Counted from the first letter of the whole stretch, positions 5,992 through 60,288 are shown. The stretch is DNA of 63,958 bases, filler included, from Craspedostauros australis (GCA_030167865.1; 8 parts of 8 records of this genome joined end to end with filler, not necessarily neighbours in it), one strand, 5' to 3'. The notes: generated by a model not told the origin, from the sequence alone. A program made the numbers and translations.

Positions 5992-8900
5992 ATGACGAAC
6001 AGACTGCATCACGGAGGGCAGAGCCGTGCAACAACGCGACAACACAGACCAACGCAGATGCAAGCGCACGCCGGGAAGGGCATGAAGACCAAGGGAGCTG
6101 CTGGTGCTGGTGCTGGAAAGAAGCCTGTGTCCACCGCAGCAGCGAGCTCACCAAGCAGGAAGGAGGGGATGATGGTGACGCCCACCAAGCCAAGACGATC
6201 CTCGCGGCAGCCGCAGATGACCAAGACGGGCGCTTCGAACGGAGTCCGTGCTGCGGTCACACCGGAAGAGCAGCAGCATCAACAACAGCTGCTGATGCAG
6301 CGCTCGCCTCCTGCTGCTCTGCGCCCACCTACGGCCGCGAATGCTGCGGGGTCTCCATCTGCATCGTCCTCCTCCTCTTCATCCTCGTCTTCAGATGGCG
6401 CTGGATCGGACGCCGCCGACGTCAACATCAACCACTACCATGCCACGCTGGCCAGGGAGTGGCTCAACCATTCCTTGCGCACGCAGCCATCGCCTGATGG
6501 AACCCTGTCGGATGGCTCGCTCTTCACCTGGACCTTCCTGCAGCACAAGTACGCCATCACCATGTCACCCCCATCGTCTTCCGCACCTCCGCCCAACGGA
6601 GCAGCCGCAACCACACCTGTGGTCAAGGTGGACAGCGCCGGTGATGCAGCTGTCGATCAACCCGATGCTCATCACAAGCGTTCTCGGCGACGCAAGCGAT
6701 TGCAATCCGCACACGATGTGGCAGAACAGATGCTCTCCAAGGTGGTTCACAAGGATGCGGATGGAGCATCGGCGCCTGCATCAACATTGAGCATGTGGAG
6801 CAACCAATGGCTGGGTTCCAACTGCATGCTCCTGGTCACGGCCCAGACGCTGCACCAGCACACCAAGTCGTCGCAGTCATCAACGCTCATGGAAACGACC
6901 TCAAAGATTGTCACGTACTTGCGTGATCAATGGAGGCAGATCCAAGCATCGCCCAACAACAGCCTGCCTTCATCGCCCAGCGCTGTCATTGCGTACGGCC
7001 ATCTGGCTTCCACCGCAGCAGGTGCGTTGGAGACCATCTTTTGGCTTCGCGATCGCCTCCATGATCCCAACTTGGCCTCTGACTTGGTCTTGGATCTGGC
7101 CTCGCGCATTCTGGTCTGCGGCAAGGACACTGCTGCGTACATCAAGCAATCCAAGGCCAGAACCAATTCGCCATCTCCGTACATGCTCTACTGGAAGACA
7201 ACCGGCCGAAGCGCCAACACCGATTGGTGGTGTGACATGCCCGGCATCCTGCACTCCCTCCTCAATCTGGCGCCCACGGAGTGGAAGCACCTCGAGACCA
7301 CCTCCTTCCCAAAGGCGAGGCTCATCGTGCGCAGCACCGTGGATCTCTGCATGGAACGGTACGGCTTCGTCGTCGGTTCCAAGGTCACGTCGTACGCCAC
7401 CTCGCCATTCTCCCACGTCCTGCTCAGCCTCCAGGCGCATGCTTGCTTCGGCGACGTGCGGTACTGGCGATTCGCGGAGGGCGTCGCGGACAGCCTGCTC
7501 TGGAAGCAGCAGGATTCCATCATCGATGCTTCGGACGTCCTCATCGGATCCGCGCAGATCTTCCTCCTCCTCGCATCGCGCGACGCCAACGCGCAAACGT
7601 GGAAACAGCGTGCGCAACAGACCTGCCAGTCGCTTCTGGCCAAGAGCAGCGCTGGCGTCGGAGGCGTCCTGCAGGGCGTCGGCGGCGTCATCAACCTTCT
7701 TCTGGATCTGTCGCGCAAGGATGTCGCCGCCGTCAACACGGTGCGTCGCATGATTCCGCCGCAGGCCATGCCATCCACCGTGGAATACTACCTGCACGAA
7801 GTCGCCGCCAACATCGATGACGATTCCGTGCTCCTCATGGAGGATCCGTTGGAAACGCGGACGCCCGTCAAGGCGACGACTCCGCAACAATCCACGACTC
7901 CCGTTGTGCAGGATCATTTCGATGACATTGATGGCGTGCCGCAGGAACTCAGCGAATCCGAGATTCCGTTGTCACGCGCCATGGATGAAGCACGCAAGCA
8001 GAAGCCGAACGGCGCCACGCAGTCTCCGGCTAATGCTGTGGACGCGCAAGATGGATCCTCGCAACGCAAGGCGGAGCAGACCAACGGCCACGTTAGCCCT
8101 AAATCGCTCGAGCCACAGAAGGGGCAGTCCGGCGTCGATCTCGCCATGTTCCTCCTGGAGCAGAACATGATGAACACCGACAGCGTCATCACCAACAATC
8201 ACAATGACGACCAATTGGAATCCCTGCTCTACTTGCGGGTCATGCTCAGCAACGCGCTTGCGGCAGCATGCAACGATCCCACCGGCGATAACTGCATCTA
8301 TCTCAAGACGGCGTGGGTCGATGCAACATCGGCATTGCGCGCCAAAGAAAAGCTGGCTTCGTCACGATCGGCAGATGCGCCCATGCCCGATCTACTCAAC
8401 ACCAACGCGTTGGGAATCAACTGCCTCCTGGTCGCCATCATGAGGCGACGCGACAAAACGGACAAGGCGCATAGTTTGGCGGACCAGATTATCCAGCAGC
8501 TGCAGCGCGAATACGACAGCGAAACCAAGGATTGCAGTTTGGTCGGTGGCAAGGCATCCCTCTTGCGTGCCATTGCGTACTTGCGACGCACACTCGACGA
8601 ATCCATGTTCGGCTCCACCCTCGTGCTGCAAATCGCCAAGGATATTCTCATGATCGGCATGCAAACCGCGCGCAACTACAAATCCAGCTACATGCTGCTG
8701 TGGGATCATCAAGACGACGACAGCGCAGTTCCGCAGTTGGGTGCCGCGCACGGATTGATCGGGATCCTGTACACTCTGCTGGATGCCCTTCATGCGGAGG
8801 AATGGACTGCGCTCGACCAAAGCCTCCCGCGCGTCAAGGATGTCATCTACAGCACCATCGAGAATCTGGAGAACACGCGCGATCCATGCGGGCGTATCTT

Positions 8901-20879: not shown

Positions 20880-20979
20880 NNNNNNNNNNNNNNNNNNNNN
20901 NNNNNNNNNNNNNNNNNNNNNNNTTAATTAATTAANNNNNNNNNNNNNNNNNNNNNNNNNNNNNNNNNNNNNNNNNNNN
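20880..20979. other. Artificial contig spacer N44-TTAATTAATTAA-N44 (also 27043-27142, 40187-40286, 44117-44216, 55607-55706, 57181-57280, 60189-60288)
   Basis: The same 100-nt pattern, carrying stops in all six frames, occurs seven times. Confidence 0.98.
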
Positions 20980-27042: not shown

Positions 27043-28044
27043 NNNNNNNNNNNNNNNNNNNNNNNNNNNNNNNNNNNNNNNNNNNNTTAATTAATTAANN
27101 NNNNNNNNNNNNNNNNNNNNNNNNNNNNNNNNNNNNNNNNNNACACACACTGAAGGTAGTGACATGCCGGAACAAAAGGAGCCTCCTCTGCTGTAACAAA
27201 CAGGGCCAGTGATATCACCATATTCCAGGACTGACAGATACGGTAGCATGCCATTCGAAGGAACAAGGAGGAACGTCCCTTGGACAACCCCCTGGCCAAG
27301 CAAGAGCCCAATCACATGGGAGAACGTTGGAGCAACGCGTGCCAAGGGGGAAATCCCAAACCATAGGTGTCCCAACATAGTGCAACCGAAGTCAACGTAA
27401 CGGTGACAGTTGTCCGTTGGACGAAGGCTGATCCAACGATACACCCACATTGATGATCCCCGCTTAACAGTATAAGCATCACTGCATGCAATTTCATGGT
27501 GGAGGAACATGCGATTGAAGTATGCTTTTAACGTGGAACAGTGCAGTCAAGTGCGTGCCTAAGTATGATGTAGACCTTCGTGCTAATCGAATTCGGGACT
27601 GCGTTCTCAGAAGTCTAACTTTGGGTAGACTTCAGGTCGACATTGGTCGTCTGTCGTGCATACGTCAGGTTCTTGAGCATACCGAAGTTTTTGGTGTGAT
27701 TTCCAACTATACGGCAACCTCCAGGGGCATTCGCAGATGGGATCGCGAACCGCCATTTCACACACATCGCATCGTTGGTGTCGTCGTAACTGCGCAGGCA
27801 AACGCTTTGAGAATTCGCCAGGGGTTCGCGCAATCAGTCAACATCGCAGGCAGAGAAACTTGTGGAACTCTGTGGGGAGACAACTACGAGTAGGAGCTAA
27901 AATGGATTTATCGGTTGTGCCGGTGTTGCATCGTCTACCATACTGTTTTGGTAGAGCAAGACCTGTGCGACTTTGGAGGTTCTCGTGCCATCCGAGGAAG
28001 GCAGAGGCCACTGGTCTGGACGAGTGCTTGTGCCGAATCACCCA

Positions 28045-40186: not shown

Positions 40187-40286
40187 NNNNNNNNNNNNNN
40201 NNNNNNNNNNNNNNNNNNNNNNNNNNNNNNTTAATTAATTAANNNNNNNNNNNNNNNNNNNNNNNNNNNNNNNNNNNNNNNNNNNN

Positions 40287-43509: not shown

Positions 43510-44380
43510 GGTTGTTGTTGGGTGTGGGTTGTGGGTTGTGGGTTGGATTGATTGATTGATCGAGTGTTGGTCAAGTATTTGATTTTATGAGAGGATGGAG
43601 GTGAGAAGTGGATGTTTGGGTTGGAGTGTTGCGCTGTGCTGTCGTGTGTTTCCTGTTTGATGCGGTGAGGTTGCACGGAGTTGGTACATGTTCACACCAT
43701 CAACAACACGCACCAACGTACAACAACACCACACATCAGAGATGGAGACATCGAATGACTGCGAATCATCACGTGAACCATTTCCGTTTCGCATTCATTT
43801 CGACTCCGCATCCGTTTTGTTTCGTTTGGAATCTTCTGACATGGGAAAGTGAGATGATGTGTGCGACGGAGTCAGCAGAGGAATTGGGTGGATGGGACGA
43901 TGACGTGGGTCATTGGCAATGTGTGAAGTTTGATTGGAGAAGTTTGCGTCGACGTTTCCTCTCTTCTGGTTTGTGATTGGTCAGTACAGCTCAGTAGCGC
44001 ACTTGTCAGATTTATGGACAGGAACAACACAGGGTTCGCCGTGCTCATTCATGTTCGCAACAACAGAGATCCACAAACAGGTGGGAAATACTGACAACAG
44101 AAAACACACCCATCAANNNNNNNNNNNNNNNNNNNNNNNNNNNNNNNNNNNNNNNNNNNNTTAATTAATTAANNNNNNNNNNNNNNNNNNNNNNNNNNNN
44201 NNNNNNNNNNNNNNNNAGATTTCGCGCCAAAACAGGAATTTCTCCCATCGGGTTGATACCGTGTTCGGTACTAGTCTGTCCCTCATTGAATCTCAACTAC
44301 ATTGAATGATTTTTTCGGCGAGTATTCGAGTGGGTCAGAACATTTTTCGCTCCGTGTTAATTCTCCGCGTTGAGTTTATT

Positions 44381-44466
44381 TTTTGCACCCTGACGCAACA
44401 AATTGAGAATCTTTGGGTGACTTGCATCAGGATGCAAAAAATGGGCGTTTTTGCACCCTGACGCAA
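44381..44466. repeat. 18-bp motif in direct/inverted/direct arrangement, possibly a DNA-transposon subterminal repeat
   Basis: ttttgcaccctgacgcaa at 44381-44398 and 44449-44466. Reverse complement with 2 mismatches (ttgcatcaggatgcaaaa) at 44422-44439. Confidence 0.85.
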
Positions 44467-44499
44467 AAAAAATTCTCCATGGATAGGAGGTTCCCTTCA

Positions 44500-47400
44500 T
44501 CAAGTCAGGAGTGAGGTGAAGGTCAGCTGACATGTGCCCCCTGTCATTCCCTTGGTCTGGCTGTCTTGGCCAGACATCGAGATTTTCAGCGGGAAGAGGA
44601 TTTTGATGATCAAGTCATCGGAACCCTTTCCTCTGGCCTTGGGTTCCAAAGATCTTCCTTCAATAACTTGTGTCTGCTCCAAACGTGGACATATCTGGGA
44701 CATGGTTTGGACCAGTTTGAGTAGAAGCAAGTTGTGAGACTCAGAAATTCTCCATTAGGCTGAATGCTCATTTATCTCTATTAATGTCCGTCCTACTGGA
44801 GGCTCACAAGGCATCTGCTGGTGAGCTACCAAGCGAGTGGGACACATGCTGGCCTACCTCGGTATTCAGGACGCGTCCAGAAAGCGTTGAGCTGCTACCA
44901 GGGCCCCTGGTTATTGGACTGGGGCAGTCGTGGTGACCCATGACTCAAGTGTGTACGGCACAGCAACGCAGGAAAAGTGGGACAAAGGTCTTGATCAGGT
45001 GGCCTCTGTCCTGGCAGATCTTGTGAGGAGTGACACCATTGAGCGAAAGAAGCTGGAACGCATACAAGGATTCTTGAACTCCCTTTGTCAGACCTACAAG
45101 CCAATGACACCCTACCTGATCGGATTCCACCTCACCATAGATGGATGGAGAGAAGGAAGGGATGCAGATGGCTGGAGAATCCTCAATTACCTCAACCAGA
45201 AAACATCAACACATGTCGCAACAGGTGATGCCACTCTTCCACCTGAGTACATCAAGCCTGCTTCGTGCCTTGCTTCTGACCTTGAAGGTCTTCATCAGTT
45301 CTTCGCACCATCAGAGCCACCACTTTGTCTTATGCAGCCTGGTCATTCCATTCGAGCCTGGTACGGTTTTGCAGATGCATCACAAGCCGGATTTGGCGCT
45401 TCCCTTCAGGTCGGCAATGAGATTGCCTTCCAGTACGGCGAATGGACCTCAGAAGAAAATGAAGCCAGCACATCAAACTGGCATGAACTCAAGAACTTGG
45501 TTGAAGCCTTGAAAGAATGGACTACCAAGTTCAAGCTGGAAGGGAGCGAGGTGTTCCTCTTCACGAATAACTCCACAGCTGAGAGTGCGTTTTGGAAGGG
45601 AAATTCAACCTCCAAACGCTTGGCGGACCTGGTGCTCAAGATGAGACTGCTCGAAATGAAGTCAAACATGATCTTGCACGTCATACATGTCAGTGGAGAT
45701 CGGATGATACTTCAAGGCACGGATGGATTGTCTTGGGCTGATCACAGCACTGGCATTATGGCCGGACAGAGTATGCTTCAACACATCCCTCTCCACTTGC
45801 AGCCATCAGATCAAAGAGGAAATCATCTCAAAGACACCATGAGAACATGCATGGAGGGAATCGAATGCGAGTGGCTCACCCCTGAAGGATGGTACAGTAC
45901 AGGTCAACGGCGAGGAAATTTTGTATGGGAATCGGCTCCTGCAGCTGCAGATGCGATGATCGATCAGATTGGCAAAGCTCGGCACAAGCGACCCCAGAAC
46001 CTGCACGTGGTCTGCATACCCAGATTGATGACTGGTCGGTGGCGGAGGAAGCTGTTGCGGTTGAGTGACTTCTACTTTAAGGTTGAACGGTGTTGGGAAT
46101 GGTCTGCTCACCTGCTGGAGCCTCTGTTTGTCTTCATTTGTCTTCCCTATCTCTCTTGGGACCCCAGACTCGACGAGCAATGCAAGCTACTGGAAGAACC
46201 AAAGGAGGTTCTGCTGCAGCGAGGTGTGTGGGAAGCTGATCCAATCAGGTGCAGGCATGCTCTGCGCGAACTTCTCCAGTCTGCGTGGGCCCTTTGCCCC
46301 CTGTCGGTCAGCTTGGTGCGGCTTGTGCTATGGCGAGATTGGGGACAAGAACTTTCCCGTCCAAACTGCCAACGACGATGACGGTATCGATCTCACTCCG
46401 GATATCGACAAGACTCGCTTCCGAATCGCCCGAAATGGTGACCATCTCATGGTGCCGTTTCAGTGCGATCGCTGTCACTTCCGCAATATCATGCTCCGCG
46501 AGCCACTTGATCACAGACAACAAGATCGAGAGATGCTTGTCTACATTCGACGAGCCAACCTTGACGTCTTTTGGAGCAGAGAGCCATCCACTGTCACGGC
46601 AAATCTTCGTGAAGCCCGACACATGGAAGCCTTTGCGGATCGGTTGAACATCCCAACCATCAGCACTCCAATAGGGCCCTTTCCGCTTCAAGACTCGTGT
46701 GGCATGGCTGTAGCAATGGCAGTACTCGACAGGTCTTTGGATACAAGTCGCTTTGCGACCAATGCTCAATGGGGGACGTTTCGGCGCACCAGGTCGGCCA
46801 TCACCAATATCCACCAAGCAGGTGCTGTTGGACTCGGGGAGTCTGTCATAGCATATGAGAGGTCTCGCATGTGGATGTCAAGTGTGCCGTCGCATCAGTT
46901 CTGGTTCACTCGATTCATGGAAGGCACCCACAGGGAGTTGGTCAGATTCGCAAGCCAGCTCATGCTTACACCTTTGACGAGATCCATGGGCTGGGAGCTC
47001 TGTTGGAGCACGAATGGAGAATGGATAACGATCACTCACGTCACAAGAGAACTGCAGAAGTGGATATGCTTACAATTGTGGCTTTCTGCACCAGGCTGAG
47101 GGGAGAGGAGATGCTACAAATCGACCTTCTTGCTACCTCTTCGAGTCTCAAGCATCTTCAAGATGTGAAGCTTCCGCACGCACGGCTTGCCATCATTGGT
47201 TGCACCAAAGGCAACAGGCATAACAGAGCACGATTTGACGTTCCATGCGTGAAAAACTTCAGGCACCGGGTTGCAACCCAGCAAATGGATCAAGCGAATG
47301 GTGTAGCAGGTCAATGGTGCAGGCCTACGTAATGGCAAGCTTTTGATGAGGAAATTGAATCCGCCAAGCCTCTTGCAGGCCCAAGGCATCATCGATACAA

Positions 47401-47624
47401 AGGTGAACATCCAAGACAAATACGGTCTTGACCGTTCAGCTTGCAGAGGGTCCACTTCTCACACGATCAACATGCATGTTCCAAGAGATATCATCAAGGC
47501 AAACAACAGATGGCAAACTGAAGCCAACCCAGTCTTGGGAAACCCAAGACTGGACATGGTGGACACCTACTCAGCACTGGAGTCACTGCTTCTGGCTGTA
47601 TTGAAGTACTTGAAGCAGATGTGA
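44500..47624 (+). mobile_element. Decayed tyrosine-recombinase (DIRS/Ngaro-like) retrotransposon: RT remnant, RNase H, YR
   Basis: YLGIQDASRKR* (~44853-44890). DIRS-type RNase H: GFADAS..GFG..SNWHELKNL..LFTNNSTAE..HVIHVSG..QGTDGLS. Overlapping Cys-rich ORF 46065-47099. YR motifs are spread over frames: LRGEE, RSACRG, NRW, DTY. Stops and frameshifts present. Confidence 0.8.
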
Positions 47625-48366
47625 TACATCTGCAGGGATGACGAGGGGAGAACGGCTCCATTGTGCCAGCACACACACTGTCACAGTGGAGCTGATTCAA
47701 GCTAGGTGCCATCATCTTCACTCACCCAATGTTGACCAGAAAAGGATGACCAGGGGAACTTGACGCTGTCGTTCCAAATGGCTAATCCAGGAAAATATGT
47801 GGGCACGTATCTGGAATCGAACTACATGTTCTTCCATGCGTTGCGAAGCTCTGCCTGCCACCAATGGCGCGAGGACTCAGTCGACTGACTGTCGGCCGGT
47901 CCACAACTATCCCCCACGTTAGCACTTCAATAGAGTAGGGTAATAAGTATACTCCTACGTATTGACGTACCACCATGTGACAATGTGAAGGAAGCTGCAC
48001 AGGTCGCAATGAACACAAAGGATGGCCAGCAATTATTGGAATCATCCGTGTTTTGACCAATCCGTGTTGCATTGGAGAACATCATGGTAGCTTCTTCTGA
48101 TTGAGACGACGGAAAGGCGTAACATGGGTTGTACAATATTTTGCCGGACAATATCGTTCTGATTATTGGTCTTCTGTGGTGACAACATCACACTGACACA
48201 AGATCCAATCGTGACGCATGACGCACTGCCCAGGATCTTCCTTGTGCATGCTCAGGAGGCGCACACCTCCACGGATCAAAGCAACAAGGGTCTGACGCTG
48301 TCGCATACGACCAACAGTCTGCCAAGAGCGGCCACACAGAATACAACACATCAACACCCTTGATTC

Positions 48367-49170
48367 ATGATGTTGCATCGCACAGGTAACGTCCCTGCCC
48401 TGCGCGGACTGGCGTCGTGGCTTGCTGTTTTGATGATCGCTTGCTGTGATCAGTCAATCCATCAATTCGGAACAGAGGCCTTCCAGCTCAGCACGAGCAC
48501 CAGCAGCACCGGCAGCGTCAACAACATCGACCCCCAAGCAACCGCGAGGGTGTCTCCGGATGAGATCTCGCGCAGAAGCTGGATGAAACAGATCATGGTG
48601 GGCGCGGCTGCCATCCCGACGGCGTCCACTGTGTCCTGCCCGCACAACGCCGCCAACGCCTTCGATGGATCCGGTTCGACCGCATCGTCCGGCATGTCGC
48701 CGGCCACGAAGATCGCCCAGCGCAAGGCCTACCAGGAGCGCGTCGTTGCCGATGTGCGCGATTTCAACGCGTTGGGCGTCGCCATCGCAACAGGCGAGAC
48801 GTCGGGCAATGCCTGGGTCAACTTCTTCATCCCCTTCCAACGCCGCGAGCCGGATGCCCTGGGTCGCAGCTATGCGGCGTTGGCCGATTTCCGCGGCGCG
48901 CCCACGCCCGATCCCAAGGTCTTTGAAGGCGGGTGCGGTTTGCTGCTGGCCACGTCCTTCACGAAGGCAGGCAAGCCGCCGGACAACACGCCGGCCGTCA
49001 AGAGCTTCAACAAGGTCTACCGCACCTTCGATGCCGTGCAGACGGCAGGGAAGAAAGGCGACGTGGCCAAGGCCAAGGTGGAGTACGAAAAGATCAAGCC
49101 CTTGCTGACGCAGTACCTTGCCGATGTGGACCTGCCTCCGGATCTGGCAGATCCCATCTATCAGAATTGA
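48367..49170 (+). CDS. Thylakoid-lumen-targeted protein, helical C-terminus reminiscent of the PsbQ-like family
   Basis: Signal peptide ending TEA-F, then a Ser/Thr transit peptide. Twin-arginine SRRSW, hydrophobic stretch and ANA-F cleavage follow. Amphipathic helices FDAVQTAGKKGDVAKAKVEYEK. The family assignment is tentative. Confidence 0.7.
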   Translation: MMLHRTGNVPALRGLASWLAVLMIACCDQSIHQFGTEAFQLSTSTSSTGSVNNIDPQATARVSPDEISRRSWMKQIMVGAAAIPTASTVSCPHNAANAFDGSGSTASSGMSPATKIAQRKAYQERVVADVRDFNALGVAIATGETSGNAWVNFFIPFQRREPDALGRSYAALADFRGAPTPDPKVFEGGCGLLLATSFTKAGKPPDNTPAVKSFNKVYRTFDAVQTAGKKGDVAKAKVEYEKIKPLLTQYLADVDLPPDLADPIYQN

Positions 49171-49459
49171 AGTACCACGAGTACAGTAGACTAGAGTAGG
49201 CAAGGAGTGGGAGCTGTAGCATCAGGCGGCTAGCTATTGAACATCTGTGGGATGGGGTTATCAGTATCAATTCAGAGAATACAACCTCGTGTTGGTACTC
49301 TGCAGCAACTCATTCATGAGCGGTGGATTGCAGAAATACTTGGAAGGTTAGCTTCTTGCCCAGAGCAGCATCCAACAAGACCCTCTCTACGTGGAATACA
49401 ATAATTACATTCGCTGCACTCGCTACACATACCCCATCATCTGTTCATGTATTATACAC

Positions 49460-52400
49460 TCAAGCATCCTGCCTTCGAAACCCTCCGGCTTCATCGTTCA
49501 TCCAGCCAGGCCTTCCCACAACGATCTGCCGATCGCGTGCGGAGAGGATATCCTTTGCATTGCGCATGGCGCGATCACGAGCCGTCGATGCTTCGCCTGC
49601 TGCGTTCATCACGTCGGGAGGTGACGAGGATTGTGGCGGTGAATACTTGCTCATCCTTGGATTCCGTTTCGGCGTTCTCGGCGTACTTGGGGTGGCAGTG
49701 CCTGCACCAGCACTAGGACTAGTCCTTGTACTAGTATCCTGCTCCGTTGCCATTGCCGCTTCGTTGTTGACGCCGTCGTTCTCACCGCCTTGGTCACAGT
49801 CGATGCATACGAAGGAAGACTCTGCTGCATCAGACTCGCTCTTCTGCTTTGCCACATTTGCCTTGTACAAATGCGTCTGTTGGATGCGGTGCAGTATCCG
49901 TCTGCCAATCGTGATGGCGGCCGACTTGGACAGGTAGTCATTGAATTTGATGCAGCTACCGGATTGGATGCATGCGGGACACCCGCCTTCGTACCCGCTG
50001 TCCTCCTGGCAGGACGAACACGAATCCATTAAGTCGACGGCTGCCTCCACAATACCATTTGGCAGAAACACGGCCTTCCACAGCTGAGCGCAGATTCCGG
50101 ACCCACCGGCACGCGAATCGAAGATCGTCACTCGGGTCGGGCGGTAGACTGAGTGATCGCACTCCACATCCGAAGCAACGCACGGAACGAACAGAGGGGC
50201 AACTGCCATTATGGCATGCGACAACGCATGGACGCCGTGAGCGTAGTCGTTCCCCAGCAGCAGACCCATTGCTTCTGCCTCGCAGTCCAGCCATATCGCG
50301 AAGCTGTCGTACTCCATGTCCGGCAAGGACAACTCGGAACGGCCAATCTCCTTCCGCGTCACCATCGAGAGCTTCGTGTATCCATGCACGTTGCGTTTCA
50401 CGTTGACGATGCCACATCCGGCGAACGAACCGAGCGAGGGATCATCTGCGTCCGTGGCGTACAGCTGGGTGACGTCCGGGAGCGGCATTGTCGGATCTTG
50501 CGGCACGGACTGGGCCAGCGATTGGGCCTTTGCATGGTCATCAGCGGTAGTGGTCGACGACTCGACTTCGTTGCCAACCTTGCGAATGTCAACGCGTTCC
50601 ATCTGCTTGGTCACTGTGATCGAAAGATTGCTCAACGGTCGGGTCATGTACCGCTGGTTGCTCGGCTTGGCATAAGCCGCCAGCGTCATGCTTCGGTAGG
50701 ACGCGCCCGTGTCTTTGGCAAAGGCTGGTGGTCGAGTGACGGAGACAATCTTGTACCGACGCCCACGGTGCATGATCATCGCACCAGGAAATGCATGGTA
50801 GAATATCCGAGAGTATGGCATGTGATCCATCACGGCCTTTTCGTTGCGGACGCCGTCCATCTGATTGCCCTGCATCGGGTGGGACAAGTCCACGATGGCG
50901 TACGACACGGGCTCGATGGATCGCAGCGACACCTTTTGGCTTGGTCTGTCTATCGATCCGTGCGTCTTGTACACCTTGGTTTGCAAAGGTCGGCCATTGT
51001 TGTCGATGGATATTGTTTCCTGCTTCAAGTCACCTGCTGCATGCAACGTCTCCATGGCGTCCATGTACACCTCGGCCGACCCGAACAATTCCTGATCGGA
51101 AAGCAGCCTAGGACCGTCGCTGGGAACCGTGTCTCCATTAATAGCCCCCGTTTCCTGTATGTTGGCCACGGTAAGGCGAGACAGAGTCAGCGGGAATTCG
51201 GATCCAGCGCACAGAAGATGACCCTGAACAAGACCTGGGTAGATGGGCATGCAGATCGGCGTCGACAATCCCTTCGTGAGAAGGGTCGTTGGATGTCGCC
51301 AGAGGTGCTGATCCGGTGGACTATTGAAGCACACCACGACTGCCAAAGACGGAACCTCCATGCGAGCACCGCCTCGACCAGCCCGGCCTGCCTGCTGCAG
51401 CAAGGATGCGTAAGAGCTGGGAAAGCCGCAGTGCAACGTCAAATCCAGGCCGCCAATGTCAACGCCAAGCTCCAACGCCGACGTGGCCACCACGCCCAGT
51501 ACCTGATTTTGGAATAACCGTGCCTCGATCTTGCGGCGTTCGTCGCGAGAGTATCCACCGCGGTAGGATTCCACCTTGGATGCTAGATCAGCAGTGGACT
51601 TGTTCTGTTTCAATGCAGAAACGGCGCGTTCGTACACCCATTCCACGAGACACCGAGTCTTGCAGAAGGCGATGCAGCGCACACCCTGCGCAACGGCACG
51701 AGCCAACAGGAATGCAGTTTCATCTGCTGAATGGCGTCTGTGGAAGTGTGTGACGGATTGTGATGTGTCTGAATCAGTTGCTGCGGTAGTGATGTTCCTC
51801 TTCCTGTTGGTGCTGGTACTGGTGCTGATTCTATTGCCTGCTAATGTCGTTGGTGCGACAACTGACGCACCAACCATTTCTACTCCATCCGTCCCCGATT
51901 GCGTGAAACCAAATGTCGAATTCGGACAAGGAACGGTGTTGCCGGTCTTGACAGCGTCCATGACGGTCATTGGCTGTCCCTTCTTGCCCCTCCTTTTCGG
52001 AAACGTTACTTGCCCGATAGATCTGCCATGTGCGTTGAGGATGGGCGGATTCCAAATGAAGAAATGCTTTGTGGACCGCGGCGATCCATCCTGCTGCACG
52101 ATGTTCACAGGGTCGCTTTTGGCGATGGGGCACAGCAGCCGCAGATGATGTTCGGGATGAGGTAGCGTTGCGGAGCATGCTACAATCGTGGGTGGAAGAG
52201 GTGGCCGATCGGCGTTGCCTGCAGCCAGCGCGGACACGCGTGCCAATCGACTGAGCACCATGGCCACATGGGCCCCAAAGACGCCTTCGTAGAGATGCGC
52301 CTCGTCAATCACCAGGTACTTCAACGCAGCGAGCATCGGTTGATACAGATGCTTCCATTGCGGGAGGATAGCGGCATGCATCGTATCAGGATTGGTTAGG

Positions 52401-54247
52401 ATGATGTTGGCGGACTCGACAATGCCAGTTCGTTGCATGTGAGGCGTGTCACCATCCAGCGTGGCCGGACGGATTCTTTGCGCAAGATCCGGCGAAGTCT
52501 CCAGCAATGTTGTGAGTTTCGAAAGCTGATCTTGTGCCAGCGCTTTGGTCGGGAACATGATCAGCGACGTGGCATTGTCATTGTACGCAGCAGAAAGGGC
52601 CGGTAGCAAGAAGCACAGCGATTTTCCTGATCCAGTGCCAGTGCACACAAGTGTGTGAGTGCGCGACAGTGCTGAATCAATCGCTTCGACTTGATGGCTG
52701 TACAGCTCTCGTTGTGGTGGTTCGTTTGAGCATGTCTCCGGAGCATCCGGATACTTCAGATGGAAGGCATCCATGACTTCCGATGGAAGCTGATCGAGGC
52801 TTGTTGGTGATAGGCTGCAAAACACAGACGATTGCGCTGGGTGGGACCCAGCATAGGCCAGCTGTTTGGGCAGCACGTAGGTTGGAATCTTGGAACCTTC
52901 AACTTCATCTTGAAGCATCCTGTGCTTCGATGCGTTGTTCCTTTGCGCGGCCTGTGTTGTCTGAAATTGGAAGCACGTGACCAACGCCTTCCTCGCGTTT
53001 GCGGCTTCGTGATGGATGATTTCGTCTTCCTCCTCTTCAATATCATTTGCATGACTAGAAGCCGGCGGACCTCTCCAATCCTTCGAAGCCTCGTTTGATT
53101 GTGAGCGGTTCTGAGAAGATTGATCATGTTCATCGACTCCGTTGCCGTGCCCTTGTGCAGTGCCATCATTGCCGTCGGCTTCGTCTTGTTGGTGTGGGTG
53201 TTGAGAATTGAGATGATCATATGTGCTGCACTTCCTGGATGATTGCTTGGTGATCTTCTTTGGCTTCAACTCCTGAGTGAGAAGCTTGCGCAAAGCTGCC
53301 ATGCGGCGTTTCGCCGCCGTCTTTGTGCTGGCATGCAAGTTGGTTGGTGCCATACCCGCAACCGGGACTGCGCCAGTCGCAACATACGGTGATGGGAATC
53401 CCACTCTCTCCTGTTGCTTTGGCGTGTCATCGGCGTTGTTGCTGCTGTTATTTGTGGCGGAGGATGCTGCCACATCATTTGCGTTGTCGCGAGCGTTGGT
53501 TGTGGTGTTGGTGATAATGTTGCCTTCGCCTCCTAAATTGTCAGCCTCGTCATCTTTGCTCTTCCCAGCATCTGATCGGCCAGCGCCCCTACTTTTTCCC
53601 CCTATCGCTTCGTCGGGATGCTCTTGGGATCCTTCATCGTAGTGCAGAATGCCATACTTGTGTAGCCGGCGCAGATGTTCCACAAGTTGCGCTTGCGGCA
53701 TGGACTTTGGGATGGTGGCCTGCAAGATCTTCCGTTGAACCATCGTCTGTCCAGTTGCGCGCGTCAAGAACTGTAGGATGGGGTCCAGCAGCTTCAGAGC
53801 CCGAACTAGTTCATGATTGTCAACTAGCTCGCTGAGTTGCTGCCTCTTCGTCTTCGCCGGAGCTCCTCCTGCTACGCATGCACTTGAAGATGTGGCTTCA
53901 GACGCAGCAGCTTTGGGCGAAGCCCCATTGCTTGTGCCAGCGGCATCACGGCTGCGAATAGTGGAGGCCACTTTGTTGTTCTTGCGCTTCGCGTTGCCAC
54001 CTGTTGCTCTCTTGCGTTTTCGGATCGGCGGCATCTTCGCTTCTGCTTCCATGGAGTTGCCATCGTCCTTCGGAACGCGCTCATCTCTTGAAGCACAGAG
54101 CGCCACTGATTCGATCACTTGCTTGGACGAGACAGCAGCATTCTTGTCTTGACCGGTGGCCGTTGTTCCGCTTTGTGCTGATCTTGTCATTGTCATTGTT
54201 GGCGTTGTTGTTGTCCTTGTCGTTGGCGCTGTCGTGGTCGATGCCAT
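49460..54247 (-). CDS. HRQ1: HRQ1-type DEAH-box helicase with C-terminal DUF1998 zinc-binding domain
   Basis: TGTGSGKS, PTKALAQDQ, TNPD, DEAH, SAT, YRGG, ATSALELGVDIG, QQAGRAGR. C-terminal HALSHA..AGGSG..CSSC..GCPACI. Likely start MASTTT at 54247. Confidence 0.93.
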   Translation of the reverse strand: MASTTTAPTTRTTTTPTMTMTRSAQSGTTATGQDKNAAVSSKQVIESVALCASRDERVPKDDGNSMEAEAKMPPIRKRKRATGGNAKRKNNKVASTIRSRDAAGTSNGASPKAAASEATSSSACVAGGAPAKTKRQQLSELVDNHELVRALKLLDPILQFLTRATGQTMVQRKILQATIPKSMPQAQLVEHLRRLHKYGILHYDEGSQEHPDEAIGGKSRGAGRSDAGKSKDDEADNLGGEGNIITNTTTNARDNANDVAASSATNNSSNNADDTPKQQERVGFPSPYVATGAVPVAGMAPTNLHASTKTAAKRRMAALRKLLTQELKPKKITKQSSRKCSTYDHLNSQHPHQQDEADGNDGTAQGHGNGVDEHDQSSQNRSQSNEASKDWRGPPASSHANDIEEEEDEIIHHEAANARKALVTCFQFQTTQAAQRNNASKHRMLQDEVEGSKIPTYVLPKQLAYAGSHPAQSSVFCSLSPTSLDQLPSEVMDAFHLKYPDAPETCSNEPPQRELYSHQVEAIDSALSRTHTLVCTGTGSGKSLCFLLPALSAAYNDNATSLIMFPTKALAQDQLSKLTTLLETSPDLAQRIRPATLDGDTPHMQRTGIVESANIILTNPDTMHAAILPQWKHLYQPMLAALKYLVIDEAHLYEGVFGAHVAMVLSRLARVSALAAGNADRPPLPPTIVACSATLPHPEHHLRLLCPIAKSDPVNIVQQDGSPRSTKHFFIWNPPILNAHGRSIGQVTFPKRRGKKGQPMTVMDAVKTGNTVPCPNSTFGFTQSGTDGVEMVGASVVAPTTLAGNRISTSTSTNRKRNITTAATDSDTSQSVTHFHRRHSADETAFLLARAVAQGVRCIAFCKTRCLVEWVYERAVSALKQNKSTADLASKVESYRGGYSRDERRKIEARLFQNQVLGVVATSALELGVDIGGLDLTLHCGFPSSYASLLQQAGRAGRGGARMEVPSLAVVVCFNSPPDQHLWRHPTTLLTKGLSTPICMPIYPGLVQGHLLCAGSEFPLTLSRLTVANIQETGAINGDTVPSDGPRLLSDQELFGSAEVYMDAMETLHAAGDLKQETISIDNNGRPLQTKVYKTHGSIDRPSQKVSLRSIEPVSYAIVDLSHPMQGNQMDGVRNEKAVMDHMPYSRIFYHAFPGAMIMHRGRRYKIVSVTRPPAFAKDTGASYRSMTLAAYAKPSNQRYMTRPLSNLSITVTKQMERVDIRKVGNEVESSTTTADDHAKAQSLAQSVPQDPTMPLPDVTQLYATDADDPSLGSFAGCGIVNVKRNVHGYTKLSMVTRKEIGRSELSLPDMEYDSFAIWLDCEAEAMGLLLGNDYAHGVHALSHAIMAVAPLFVPCVASDVECDHSVYRPTRVTIFDSRAGGSGICAQLWKAVFLPNGIVEAAVDLMDSCSSCQEDSGYEGGCPACIQSGSCIKFNDYLSKSAAITIGRRILHRIQQTHLYKANVAKQKSESDAAESSFVCIDCDQGGENDGVNNEAAMATEQDTSTRTSPSAGAGTATPSTPRTPKRNPRMSKYSPPQSSSPPDVMNAAGEASTARDRAMRNAKDILSARDRQIVVGRPGWMNDEAGGFRRQDA

Positions 54248-54535
54248 TGTGCCTCTGTCGGAAAATGTGGCACCAACAACAGCGTGGTGATGTGTCTGTT
54301 GCCGTATTGTGTTCTTTGGTGGGAAGTGCGCGAAACAATCGAACTGGTCGTGCCAATGGAGATCTGGCGATTGGTCCAATGAGTCAAGATCTGTTTTTGG
54401 CGCCAAAATAATCTGCACCCACAACAACCACAACAATCGCACGAGCAAGAACAGCGTCGTATCCAAACTGGGAACAATCGATGGAAGCAACAGAACTACT
54501 CGCACACTGCAGCGTGAGCGACCGTTGAAGCTCGT

Positions 54536-54723
54536 TGTTGATTCCAGTCCCGCCCGTGACTCGCCTGTCCATCGCCAGAACGCTATGCACCTCGCGCCCA
54601 CTTTTCTGCTAGAGACAGGCAAGCTACGATCAGGAATCCTTTCCGCAACTCCAGCGCTAATCAATACAATCTCTCATAAATATTAGCGAACAACATTGAT
54701 TCACTCACTCAGTCCTATTAACA
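54536..54723 (+). mobile_element. Putative 5' LTR (~188 bp) of the adjacent Copia element
   Basis: Starts TGTTGAT and ends ATTAACA (imperfect terminal inverted repeat, TG..CA), 67 nt before the gag ATG. No second LTR is in the window, so the 5' boundary is inferred. Confidence 0.55.
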
Positions 54724-54737
54724 GTTGTTCGCTAATA
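54681..54737 (+). promoter_or_regulatory. Perfect 14-bp inverted repeat spanning the LTR/PBS junction
   Basis: tattagcgaacaac (54681-54694) is the exact reverse complement of gttgttcgctaata (54724-54737), with a 29-nt loop. Confidence 0.9.
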
Positions 54738-54790
54738 GCAAGTTCACCCAAACATCGGGCACCAAGACCAACACCACCACCATCATCACC

Positions 54791-55606
54791 ATGGCCAACA
54801 GCCACGAAAAAATCCTCGCCACATTCCCGCAGGCCGTCGTCAAGCCGATCATCGGATTGCCCACCTACGAAACCATCGCCGAACTCAACGTTGTACTCAA
54901 CGCCAACGCAGCTTCCGTCCATTGCCCCCTGGGAAATGGAGGGCTGGGATACCTGGTTCTCACCGTATCCAACGAGATCTACAACGAGCAATCGGCAACG
55001 GCATTCGTCATACCAGCCAATCCAGGACCGCATCCAGTCATCCCAACGGGAGCCACAGCAGCACAGATCAGCGCAGCCACCAGCATCCACAAGGAACAAG
55101 AGCGCCTGTGGAGAGAGTACCGCGCCGTCGACAACGCGCTCAAACAACAACTTCTTGGCGCCGTGGAGGATCAATACGTGCGAACCCTTCGGCACAACAT
55201 TGTGGGATACGCCAACGTCTCCACCTTGCAGCTGCTCACGCACCTGCACAGCACGTACGGCAAGATCACCCCTCAAGACCTGGATGCCAACGACAAGGCC
55301 ATGAAGACTGCCTACGATCCAGCGGAGCCTTTCGAGGTGCTCGTCGCACAGATCGAATCCGCGCGCGATCTTGCCGCGGCAGCCAAGACACCGTACACCG
55401 ATCACCAGCTGGTCAACACCGCGTACAACCTTGTGTTCCAAACACAGGAGTTCCCCGAAGCATGCCGTTCTTTCCGCGCCCTCAGTGCCGCCGACAAGAC
55501 CTGGCCACGGTTCAAAGCCGACTTCGCAGCCGCCCACCAAGACCACCGCGAAGCCCAGTCGTCAACCACGACTTCGGGATTCCAAGGAGCCAACGCAGCT
55601 ACAACA
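54791..55606 (+). mobile_element. Diatom Copia (CoDi-like) gag, 3'-truncated by gap
   Basis: FP..PIIGLPTYETI..LNANAASV..LGNGGLGYL..NPG..ALKQQL..VGYANV..HLHSTYG..KTWPRFK. Recognised from memory as the diatom Copia gag pattern; no pol on this contig. Confidence 0.75.
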
Positions 55607-55706
55607 NNNNNNNNNNNNNNNNNNNNNNNNNNNNNNNNNNNNNNNNNNNNTTAATTAATTAANNNNNNNNNNNNNNNNNNNNNNNNNNNNNNNNNNNNNN
55701 NNNNNN

Positions 55707-57180
55707 CTACATGCAATGCCCAAAGGGCATGAGGCATGAGGCCGACGAATGCTTGCTGCTCAAGAAGACCATCTATGGATTAGTGCAGAGTGCCAGACAA
55801 TGGAACAAAAAGCTGGTCGACATTCTACTCAACCTGGGATTTCGACAGAGCAAAGTGGATCCATGCCTTCTGATTTGGAATCAGGAAGGGAAACTGCTGC
55901 TGATAGGCACCTACGTCGATGACTGTCTATGCATCAGAGAGAAGGAGGAATTGAAGCAACTGACGATCGACATCAAAGCTGAGCAATTCGGAATCAAGGT
56001 GGAGAACGACCTCGAAGACTACCTCAGCTGCAAGATCATCTTCAACAACGAACAGTCGAACTGCTGGGTGAACCAGCCACACATCATCAAGAACATCATC
56101 GACACATTCAAGGATGACGTGCTGACTCTACAACGATACGGAACTCCAGGAACACCAGGACAAGGTATCCAGAGAAACAGCAACTTACCCAAAGTGGACA
56201 GTGACCGACACAGCAGATACCGAAGCGGAGTAGGTATGCTGCTATACTTGGTGAAGCACTCGCGACCAGACATTGCGAATGCGGTGCGCGAACTTACCAA
56301 GGTACTGGACGGACCATCAGCTGCAGCATACAAGGAGATGCTGCGAGTTATGAAGTTCGTATCGGACACGAGGGACTACGGACTACGAATGCAACCAACC
56401 CCGCTGGAGAACGACGCATGGAAGATCGAGATCTACGCNGACAGCGAGTTTGCGGGAGACAAGGATAACCGGATCAGTGTCGGGGGACATCTCGTCCTAC
56501 TGCAAGGGGTGCCCATCGTATGGAGATCGAANGCACAACNAAGNGTAACTCTCAGCTCAACAGAGGCGGAATACGTCGCCCTGTCAGAAGCAGGAAAGGA
56601 GATTCGCTTCCTCACGCAGCTAATGGAGGACATCGGCTTGACGATGACCAAACCAGTGGATGTGTATGTGGACAATGTGGGAGCTATCTTCATTGCCTCC
56701 AATCCATCGACATCAGCGCGGACGAGACACATCGATATACGACATCATTTCACTTGGGAGCTGATAGACAACGGAGAGGCACGAATTCAATTTGTGCGCT
56801 TAGAGGACAACATCGCAGACGGCTTCACCAAGAACACAAAGAAGGAGATCTACGACAGACACAAAGGGAGCATCATTCAATTGAGATNNNNNNNNNNNNN
56901 NNNNNNNNNNNNNNNNNNNNNNNNNNNNNNNNNNNNNNNNNNNNNNNNNAGACGATTTGTGTGTGTGAGTGAGTATGGTGGTGCGACAATGGAAGGGTGT
57001 CAGGAATCGGGGGTACGACTTTGCAAAGATACCGTATTCTACCGCAGCTCCCATGAGGACTGACTGGAACCGGAATGGTATTAAGTGCAAAGATACCCCA
57101 CGATTGCCGCAACCCCCAATAGCATCTCCCAGACAAACCGCAACCTAGCAATCGACCAGTTGCACTCGGACAGCCCAATG
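55707..57180 (+). mobile_element. Copia RT/RNase H 3' part, polypurine tract and start of 3' LTR
   Basis: KKTIYGLVQSARQW, YVDD, YRSGVGMLLYL..SRPDIANAV, DSEFAGD, LSSTEAEY, VDNVGA, RTRHIDIRHHF, ADGFTK. Purine run ggaaggg directly precedes TGTCAGG at 56998. Confidence 0.93.
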
Positions 57181-57280
57181 NNNNNNNNNNNNNNNNNNNN
57201 NNNNNNNNNNNNNNNNNNNNNNNNTTAATTAATTAANNNNNNNNNNNNNNNNNNNNNNNNNNNNNNNNNNNNNNNNNNNN

Positions 57281-60188: not shown

Positions 60189-60288
60189 NNNNNNNNNNNN
60201 NNNNNNNNNNNNNNNNNNNNNNNNNNNNNNNNTTAATTAATTAANNNNNNNNNNNNNNNNNNNNNNNNNNNNNNNNNNNNNNNNNNNN

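Follow-up and report, generated by a model that had tools for sequence, protein, structure and literature searches.

The stretch analyzed here, referred to as the window, comprises 63,958 nucleotides from Craspedostauros australis (GCA_030167865.1) and consists of unplaced scaffolds strung together with N44-TTAATTAATTAA-N44 linkers, so that sequences on the two sides of a linker are not genomic neighbors. Seven such linkers with stop codons in six frames were located at 20880-20979, 27043-27142, 40187-40286, 44117-44216, 55607-55706, 57181-57280 and 60189-60288. The scaffold of interest (44217-55606) carries the 5′ portion of an LTR retrotransposon on the plus strand, consisting of a 188-bp 5′ LTR (54536-54723) that runs from TGTTGATTCC to CTATTAACA (TG...CA), a leader whose last 53 nt (54738-54790) reach to the gag ATG, and the first 272 codons of a gag open reading frame (54791-55606). 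The gag frame is broken by the end of the scaffold, and therefore neither the 3′ LTR nor the pol gene of this copy lies within the window. Upstream on the minus strand, a 1734-codon open frame (49460-54664) showed DEAD, Helicase_C and MZB (MrfA Zn-binding) domains and represents a host-type helicase. This frame extends 129 nt into the LTR (54536-54664), so that the element is located in, or borders on, the 5′ end of a gene with divergent orientation. A blastn search with 54300-55606 found no second copy in the window, only short chance matches, and tblastn with gag returned the gene itself only.

The limits of the LTR were examined using the contigs of a public run (X1) that shares words with the stretch (share 0.12). 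A contig of 310 nt aligned exactly to 54536-54723, with one other letter and with unrelated sequence on both sides. Because the match ends exactly at 54536 and 54723, the 188-bp unit is a repeat with those ends, in agreement with the limits that the initial annotation had deduced from the window itself. Beyond the position of 54723, the contig continues with TTCGGTGCC instead of the sequence that follows the LTR in the window. That following sequence, the putative primer-binding site (PBS), is thus internal to the element and outside the LTR. The flanks of the contig showed neither a purine tract nor a 5-bp duplication, and both a solo LTR and a 3′ LTR are possible. A second X1 contig shares 54679-54709 (31 nt, one other letter), differs elsewhere and ends with ...TTATTGACA, a terminus typical of the clade described below. 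Judged by this shared segment, it is a related LTR family of the same organism with nearly the same arm 1 as the inverted repeat described next.

The end of the LTR lies within a perfect inverted repeat. Arm 1 (TATTAGCGAACAAC, 54681-54694) is located inside the LTR, and arm 2, the putative PBS (GTTGTTCGCTAATA, 54724-54737), begins 0 nt after it; both are given for the plus strand. The arms are complementary at 14 of 14 positions and are separated by the last 29 nt of the LTR (54695-54723). The stem is bounded on both sides by unpaired bases, with a at 54680 facing g at 54738 and a at 54695 facing a at 54723, and the 3′ C of arm 1 (54694) pairs with the first base after the LTR. Upon re-reading of the window, the sequences and coordinates given in the initial annotation, their exact complementarity, the stop of the pairing at the CA boundary and the absence of TGG from the first bases 3′ of 54723 were all borne out. 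When the 250 nt before gag were dinucleotide-shuffled 100 times, the longest perfect inverted repeat had a mean length of 6.3 nt and a maximum of 9 nt, and the observed 14 nt were equalled in none. The whole window contains three perfect inverted repeats of at least 11 nt with a loop of 10 to 100 nt, of which the 14-nt pair is the longest. RNA folding of 54676-54745 gave −19.8 kcal/mol (z −6.5, 0 of 200 shuffles), with arm 1 and the PBS forming the outer stem of the minimum-energy fold. A scan of 54400-54900 against Rfam matched no family at E values up to 1.

In order to find related elements, the gag sequence was used as query. The gag fragment matched 0 Pfam families but had 130 homologs, mostly stand-alone proteins of about 400 residues with a best identity of 56%, nearly all of them found in environmental assemblies and one in a transcriptome with the label "Coscin...". 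An alignment of 29 of the gag sequences showed no conserved stretch, and a 9-sequence alignment was used for retrieval instead. The profile built from these nine sequences identified 43 metagenome loci, 32 of which contain the start of gag. The set examined consists of the 31 loci with at least 140 nt upstream of gag together with the window, giving 32 sequences; one locus with 102 nt (L036) was left out. The same gag query in viral contigs gave 32 pattern matches and 0 relatives. The clade is common in marine sequence data and is probably of diatom origin. Both LTRs are present in three loci, where the LTR end and the start of arm 2 fall at 484|485 (L011), 888|889 (L007) and 67|68 (L019, ambiguous by 2 nt), with unrelated sequence after the 3′ LTR. 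The LTR of L007 begins with TGTTGATTCC, as in the window.

The related loci also indicate the superfamily, with gag sitting upstream of a pol of Copia order. RVT_2 was found in all seven scannable pol open reading frames (best E value 4.9e-9; for L011, 27.7 bits, below the Pfam cut-off of 31.6), SH3_retrovirus in six of the seven and rve in two (best E value 0.0043), the latter two upstream of the reverse transcriptase (RT). In the L011 pol, the integrase-type matches span 451-509 and RVT_2 spans 706-900. The pol consensus (alignment A4) has an order that we take to be a protease-like D-x-G-C-T, an integrase-like core, an RT with VVDDF and an RNase H-like HSDAS. A PDB sequence search with the L011 pol and the pol profile gave 0 matches. 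On the basis of these domain matches, the relatives are of Ty1/copia order, with integrase before an RVT_2-type RT. The initial annotation had assigned the element to Copia, and this holds for the relatives; the copy in the window breaks off in gag and appears to be Copia-type through its gag, which ties it to the relatives at 35 to 54% identity. The next scaffold in the window carries, at 55708-57063 on the plus strand, a classical Copia RT/RNase H fragment with internal N runs (RVT_2, E value 6e-14). The L011 pol aligned to it with 21% identity (E value 8e-10), by which measure the fragment belongs to a different Copia family from the clade studied here.

Retention of the complementarity in related elements had been set beforehand as a test by the initial annotation, and it was found throughout the clade, in different letters. 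In all 32 sequences, the bases that directly follow the LTR form pairs with an LTR-internal site located 19 to 90 nt upstream. The pairing is perfect over 9 to 14 nt in 19 of them, including the 9 nt of L020 and the 10 nt of L022, and in 17 of these 19 it is the longest inverted repeat found there. The remaining 13 have one or two mismatches or G-U pairs over 10 to 12 nt. The LTR termini preceding arm 2 read ...TTGTCA, ...TTGACA, ...TCATCA, ...TTAACA or ...TTGTTA. For 15 of the 32 sequences, 0 of 100 shuffles reached the stem length of the sequence itself. When the best complementary 10-mer in the 200 nt before gag was sought without constraint, this pair was returned in 28 of the 32 (off by one base in L030), and another 10-mer pair tied or won in L007, L022, L023 and L025. 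In each of the 10 relatives that were folded, the outer stem of the structure of lowest energy was likewise formed by arm 1 and the PBS.

Covariation between the arms was analyzed in an alignment (A3) of 25 sequences that remained after removal of seven near-duplicates (L005, L008, L018, L025, L030, L034 and L043). In all 25, arm 2 follows the LTR without an intervening base. Across the 14-pair helix of this alignment, which was cut by coordinates from the pairing search and leans towards the structure to that extent, 85.4% of cells were paired against 64.0% after shuffling, and the covariation score was 0.522 against 0.108; none of 500 shuffles reached the observed measures, a control that is indicative and not a probability as the sequences are related. 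Both sides change in 12 of the 14 pairs (60 cells), and the ten core pairs hold only 8 unpaired cells out of 250. When the 3′ partner was shifted by 1 to 3 columns in either direction, the share of paired cells fell to 20 to 53%. At one position the pair types were GC 9, AU 6, UA 5 and CG 4, a diversity that, to judge from the alignment, would be hard to get without constraint. Mismatches common to several contigs were also observed: an A-C in L001 and L025 (L023 has two), and others in L004/L005, L027/L030/L034 and L003/L008. At the start of the loop directly after arm 1 (columns 25-34, corresponding to 54695-54704 of the window), GTCTTTA is found in many families, ATGNTTTAC in others and ATTGATTCAC in the window. 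This motif could mark a cleavage site, a poly(A) site or a strand-transfer region.

The PBS itself varies widely. The 25 aligned sequences contain 22 different PBS 10-mers (for example GTCGTTACTA, GAGTTGAGTA, GTTATCACTT, GAGGTAATTA and TACTTGTGTA), and TGG is present in the first 8 bases after the LTR in 0 of 25; one host tRNA therefore cannot fit them all, and this diversity speaks against any single tRNA, the initiator tRNA-Met included, to an internal part of which the half-tRNA(iMet) PBS of Copia elements is complementary. The window contains 0 tRNA genes. Among the 43 loci, ARAGORN made one call, an 84-nt tRNA-Ala (GGC) at 1582-1665 on the minus strand of L011, which lies on the opposite strand inside the gag frame and is probably a false positive.

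Immediately before arm 1, each of the 25 aligned sequences has a short motif, NCAT[AT], which reads TCAT[AT] in 16, CCAT[AT] in eight and ACATT in one. From the T of the motif to the 3′ end of arm 1, the distance is 15 to 16 nt in 24 of the 25 and 18 nt in the window, while the loops range from 19 to 90 nt. PMC4686930 gives TCAH+1W as a proposed initiator (Inr)-like consensus for Phaeodactylum tricornutum, and the TCATA of the window (54674-54678, plus strand) fits this consensus, which is that of P. tricornutum. The motif and its spacing suggest a candidate transcription start at the T of 54677, 4 nt upstream of the 54681 predicted by the initial annotation. With a start at 54677, the first 18 nt of the RNA would consist of 4 unpaired bases followed by arm 1. 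As a short motif, NCAT[AT] could also have another role, for instance as a poly(A) signal. In L017 and L020, arm 1 is followed by 19 nt of LTR, and R would all but vanish if transcription began downstream of that arm. The reading of CAT[AT]A as a TATA box was rejected as unlikely on similar grounds, since these two loci have about 35 nt from the motif to the LTR end and a start 25 to 30 nt downstream would again leave hardly any R. A search of cDNA-like contigs for poly(A) tails, or for ends coinciding with the putative start, gave nothing usable. L011 (415-430), L001 (about 1530-1545), L014, L024 and L037 carry a CCAAT-like box, GCCAAT(A)GCTCATTA, immediately before the Inr-like motif, and the window has ATCAAT at 54660-54665. 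This box may belong to the core promoter.

From the way LTRs are formed, it follows that the minus-strand primer has its 3′ end at the base after the 5′ LTR. Fission-yeast Tf1 primes with the first 11 nt of its own transcript. On the evidence of the pairing and its variation, Tf1-type self-priming is the best reading of the site, and we consider it probable that the clade primes from its own RNA and not from a tRNA. It is the simplest account because the first post-LTR base pairs with the 3′ end of arm 1, TGG is absent and the PBS varies with its partner following. The suggestion of the initial annotation that this Copia element could self-prime is accordingly strengthened, having come through the checks on both the LTR limits and the complementarity in relatives. 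The criterion of PMC6317226 asks that 10 bp or more of the 5′ LTR be complementary to a region that begins 0 to 5 bp after the LTR; the window has 14 bp at 0 bp.

We infer the following course for the window copy. Transcription would start at the TCAT[AT] initiator-like motif, at about 54677, and the first 15 to 18 nt of the RNA would fold back, with their 3′ part (54681-54694, the proposed self-primer core) pairing with 54724-54737. The RNase H of the element would cut at the end of the duplex, after 54694, and the freed 3′ OH would prime minus-strand DNA by copying the 29-nt loop from 54723 back to 54695, the loop acting, on the Tf1 model, as the remaining R-U5. The resulting short strong-stop DNA would be transferred to the repeat at the 3′ end of the RNA. 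Plus-strand strong-stop DNA would later copy the RNA primer, and the PBS would thereby be rewritten from arm 1. Such rewriting would keep the arms complementary and make them covary, and would explain the perfect stems. If the PBS is rewritten in each cycle, shared mismatches should be purged, unless the copies concerned are inactive or the mismatch is tolerated. The R-U5 left after the primer would be very short, at 29 nt in the window and just 19 nt in L017 and L020, and would offer little homology for the first strand transfer, which, like the shared mismatches, counts against the proposal.

It is unlikely that the conserved hairpin instead acts in cis as an RNA structure for some different function, be it packaging or dimerization, translational control or 5′-end protection, with some other RNA priming at this place or close to it. 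Stable, conserved hairpins in the 5′ leader are common in retroelements, and the fixed mismatches kept by some families would be in line with such a role. A precedent is also provided by the fungal Copia element GalEa, for which the passages of PMC5445492 on the PBS region describe a conserved hairpin of unknown role at the PBS position. However, a structure serving another purpose has no reason to hold its register exactly where the 3′ end of a primer must sit, and the 3′ arm begins at the very first post-LTR base in every aligned sequence, with verified LTR ends in the window, L011, L007 and L019 (within 2 nt). In addition, no alternative PBS is visible, given the missing TGG and the 22 different 10-mers at the site.

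The same segment might also prime without acting in cis from the 5′ end, with arm 1 supplied by the 3′ LTR region or by a second, co-packaged RNA. Arm 1 is inside the LTR and is therefore present in both LTRs (as in the 3′ LTR of L011) and probably also near the 3′ end of the RNA, and cis and trans priming are indistinguishable from sequence alone. The fixed spacing of 15 to 18 nt from the Inr-like motif, however, is what one would expect of a primer taken from the 5′ end of the RNA and has no explanation otherwise, and the hairpin is the predicted minimum-energy fold in cis; we consider priming in trans or from the 3′ copy quite improbable. A functionless inverted repeat that arose beside the LTR by chance has next to no probability left. 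A single 14-nt repeat in one copy is conceivable, and a pattern search gave 2 matches at up to 2 mismatches in 1 of 100 shuffles, but 14 nt were reached in 0 of 100 shuffles, the repeat is the longest of its kind in the window, and the pairing recurs with covariation in 32 of 32 sequences. The chance reading was ruled out by the shuffles together with the covarying pairing in relatives.

The nearest comparison is with the self-priming elements Tf1 of Schizosaccharomyces pombe and Tj1 of S. japonicus, for which the definition and the Tj1 figure legend in PMC4600332 provide the points of comparison. As described there, the PBS of Tf1 and Tj1 can pair with a 5′ stretch of their mRNA that lies in the 5′ LTR, the primer reaches with its 3′ end to the first post-LTR base, and complementarity to a tRNA is absent; the clade resembles them in the pairing with the 5′ LTR and in its register, and shows no TGG at the site. 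Tf1 and Tj1 are Ty3/gypsy elements with integrase after RT, whereas the clade has integrase before an RVT_2-type RT. The arms of the clade are moreover only 19 to 90 nt apart (29 nt in the window), and the putative primer is 15 to 18 nt long with 3 to 5 unpaired 5′ bases. Since the clade does not have RT/RNase H before integrase, it is not a member of the Tf1/sushi group (Ty3/gypsy chromoviruses); its case, known from the sequences only, would be one of Tf1-like working.

The initial annotation regarded self-priming as known mainly from Gypsy-type elements, and this has to be widened, as the passages of PMC6317226 on the plant Ty1/copia TAR lineage (Houba, Osr-1) report self-priming as predicted there as well. 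Like the clade, the TAR elements are described in these passages as Copia elements with a PBS region complementary to the 5′ LTR. They differ in belonging to another host kingdom and another Copia clade. A further difference is that the pol of the clade is weak on RVT_2 (27.7 bits against the cut-off of 31.6 in L011) and its gag is without a Pfam family.

GalEa is placed, in the sections of PMC5445492 that deal with it, in Copia "branch 1" together with diatom CoDi-like clades. According to the same sections, fungal GalEa has no tRNA-type PBS and carries a conserved hairpin at the PBS position; the clade studied here likewise has a conserved hairpin there and shows no tRNA signature. The first conserved sequence of GalEa forms a palindrome that takes in the final A of the LTR, a complementary LTR (U5) sequence was never found by its authors, and no known model is said to fit. 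In contrast, the PBS GTTGTTCGCTAATA is not palindromic and has its partner inside the LTR at 54681-54694, which is the geometry of Tf1; the palindromic site of GalEa has no counterpart here. For CoDi elements (Copia from diatoms), the main text of PMC2806351 describes LTRs of 153 to 844 bp, TG/CA termini and the Copia domain order, and reports that in one element a 163-bp LTR suffices to act as promoter. Nitrate limitation is reported in PMC2806351 as a stress that induces diatom LTR elements. The 188-bp LTR of the window and its TG/CA ends are compatible with the CoDi elements, in a comparison by length and termini. That main text contains no passage on a primer-binding site, with 0 occurrences of "tRNA" and "priming" and a single "PBS" that denotes the buffer.

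A full-text literature search, which covered PMC2806351 in its main text, turned up no account of self-priming for diatom elements. According to PMC6317226 and PMC4600332, experimental demonstration of self-priming is confined to Gypsy-type elements of fission yeast, and the other cases, including one plant Copia lineage, are predictions. Prediction of self-priming for a Copia lineage is thus already known from TAR, and what would be new is a clade of marine-protist Copia-type elements in which it is backed by covariation. The priming mode of reverse transcription is a defining trait of LTR retroelement lineages. More tentatively, and with some doubt on our part, a whole abundant clade of marine diatom Copia elements may have dispensed with tRNA primers and may use the first 15 to 18 nt of its own initiator-driven transcript, with an R-U5 of 19 to 90 nt, a mode that may be ancestral in branch 1 or in LTR retrotransposons generally. 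If this is true, that R-U5 would be among the shortest strong-stop templates of any LTR element. On this view the clade would lie in Copia branch 1 beside GalEa with its unexplained hairpin, and for this reason hairpin self-priming may be ancestral there; the clade likewise offers a comparison case for the fungal site. The architecture, consisting of an initiator-like motif, a primer of 15 to 18 nt, a short loop and a PBS flush with the LTR, is testable and predicts a very short strong-stop DNA. It also provides a diagnostic signature for the annotation of diatom transposons where tRNA-based PBS finders will fail.

Further features were observed in the related loci. GCGAGGGTG adjoins the start of the LTR (TGTTGATTCC or TGTCAATTCC) in L007 (5842-5850), L001 (1413-1421), L023 and L025, and from this position it is likely the polypurine tract of the clade. 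In the leader between PBS and gag, two copies of C(C/T)CTCGAACGC lie about 20 nt apart in L002 (1015-1055), L004 (915-955), L020 (335-375) and L036 (25-65); the leader of the window does not contain this motif. The first 127 to 332 nt of L004, L005 and L015 recur at the end of the contig with 96 to 100% identity, and these contigs are circular permutations with LTRs collapsed in assembly, not true circles or tandems. Finally, the element in L007 is flanked by a CGGCAAA-type tandem array with 14-nt spacing and, on both sides, by tandem units of about 182 nt (1-200, 170-660 and 6080-6610), and it is inserted in satellite-like DNA.
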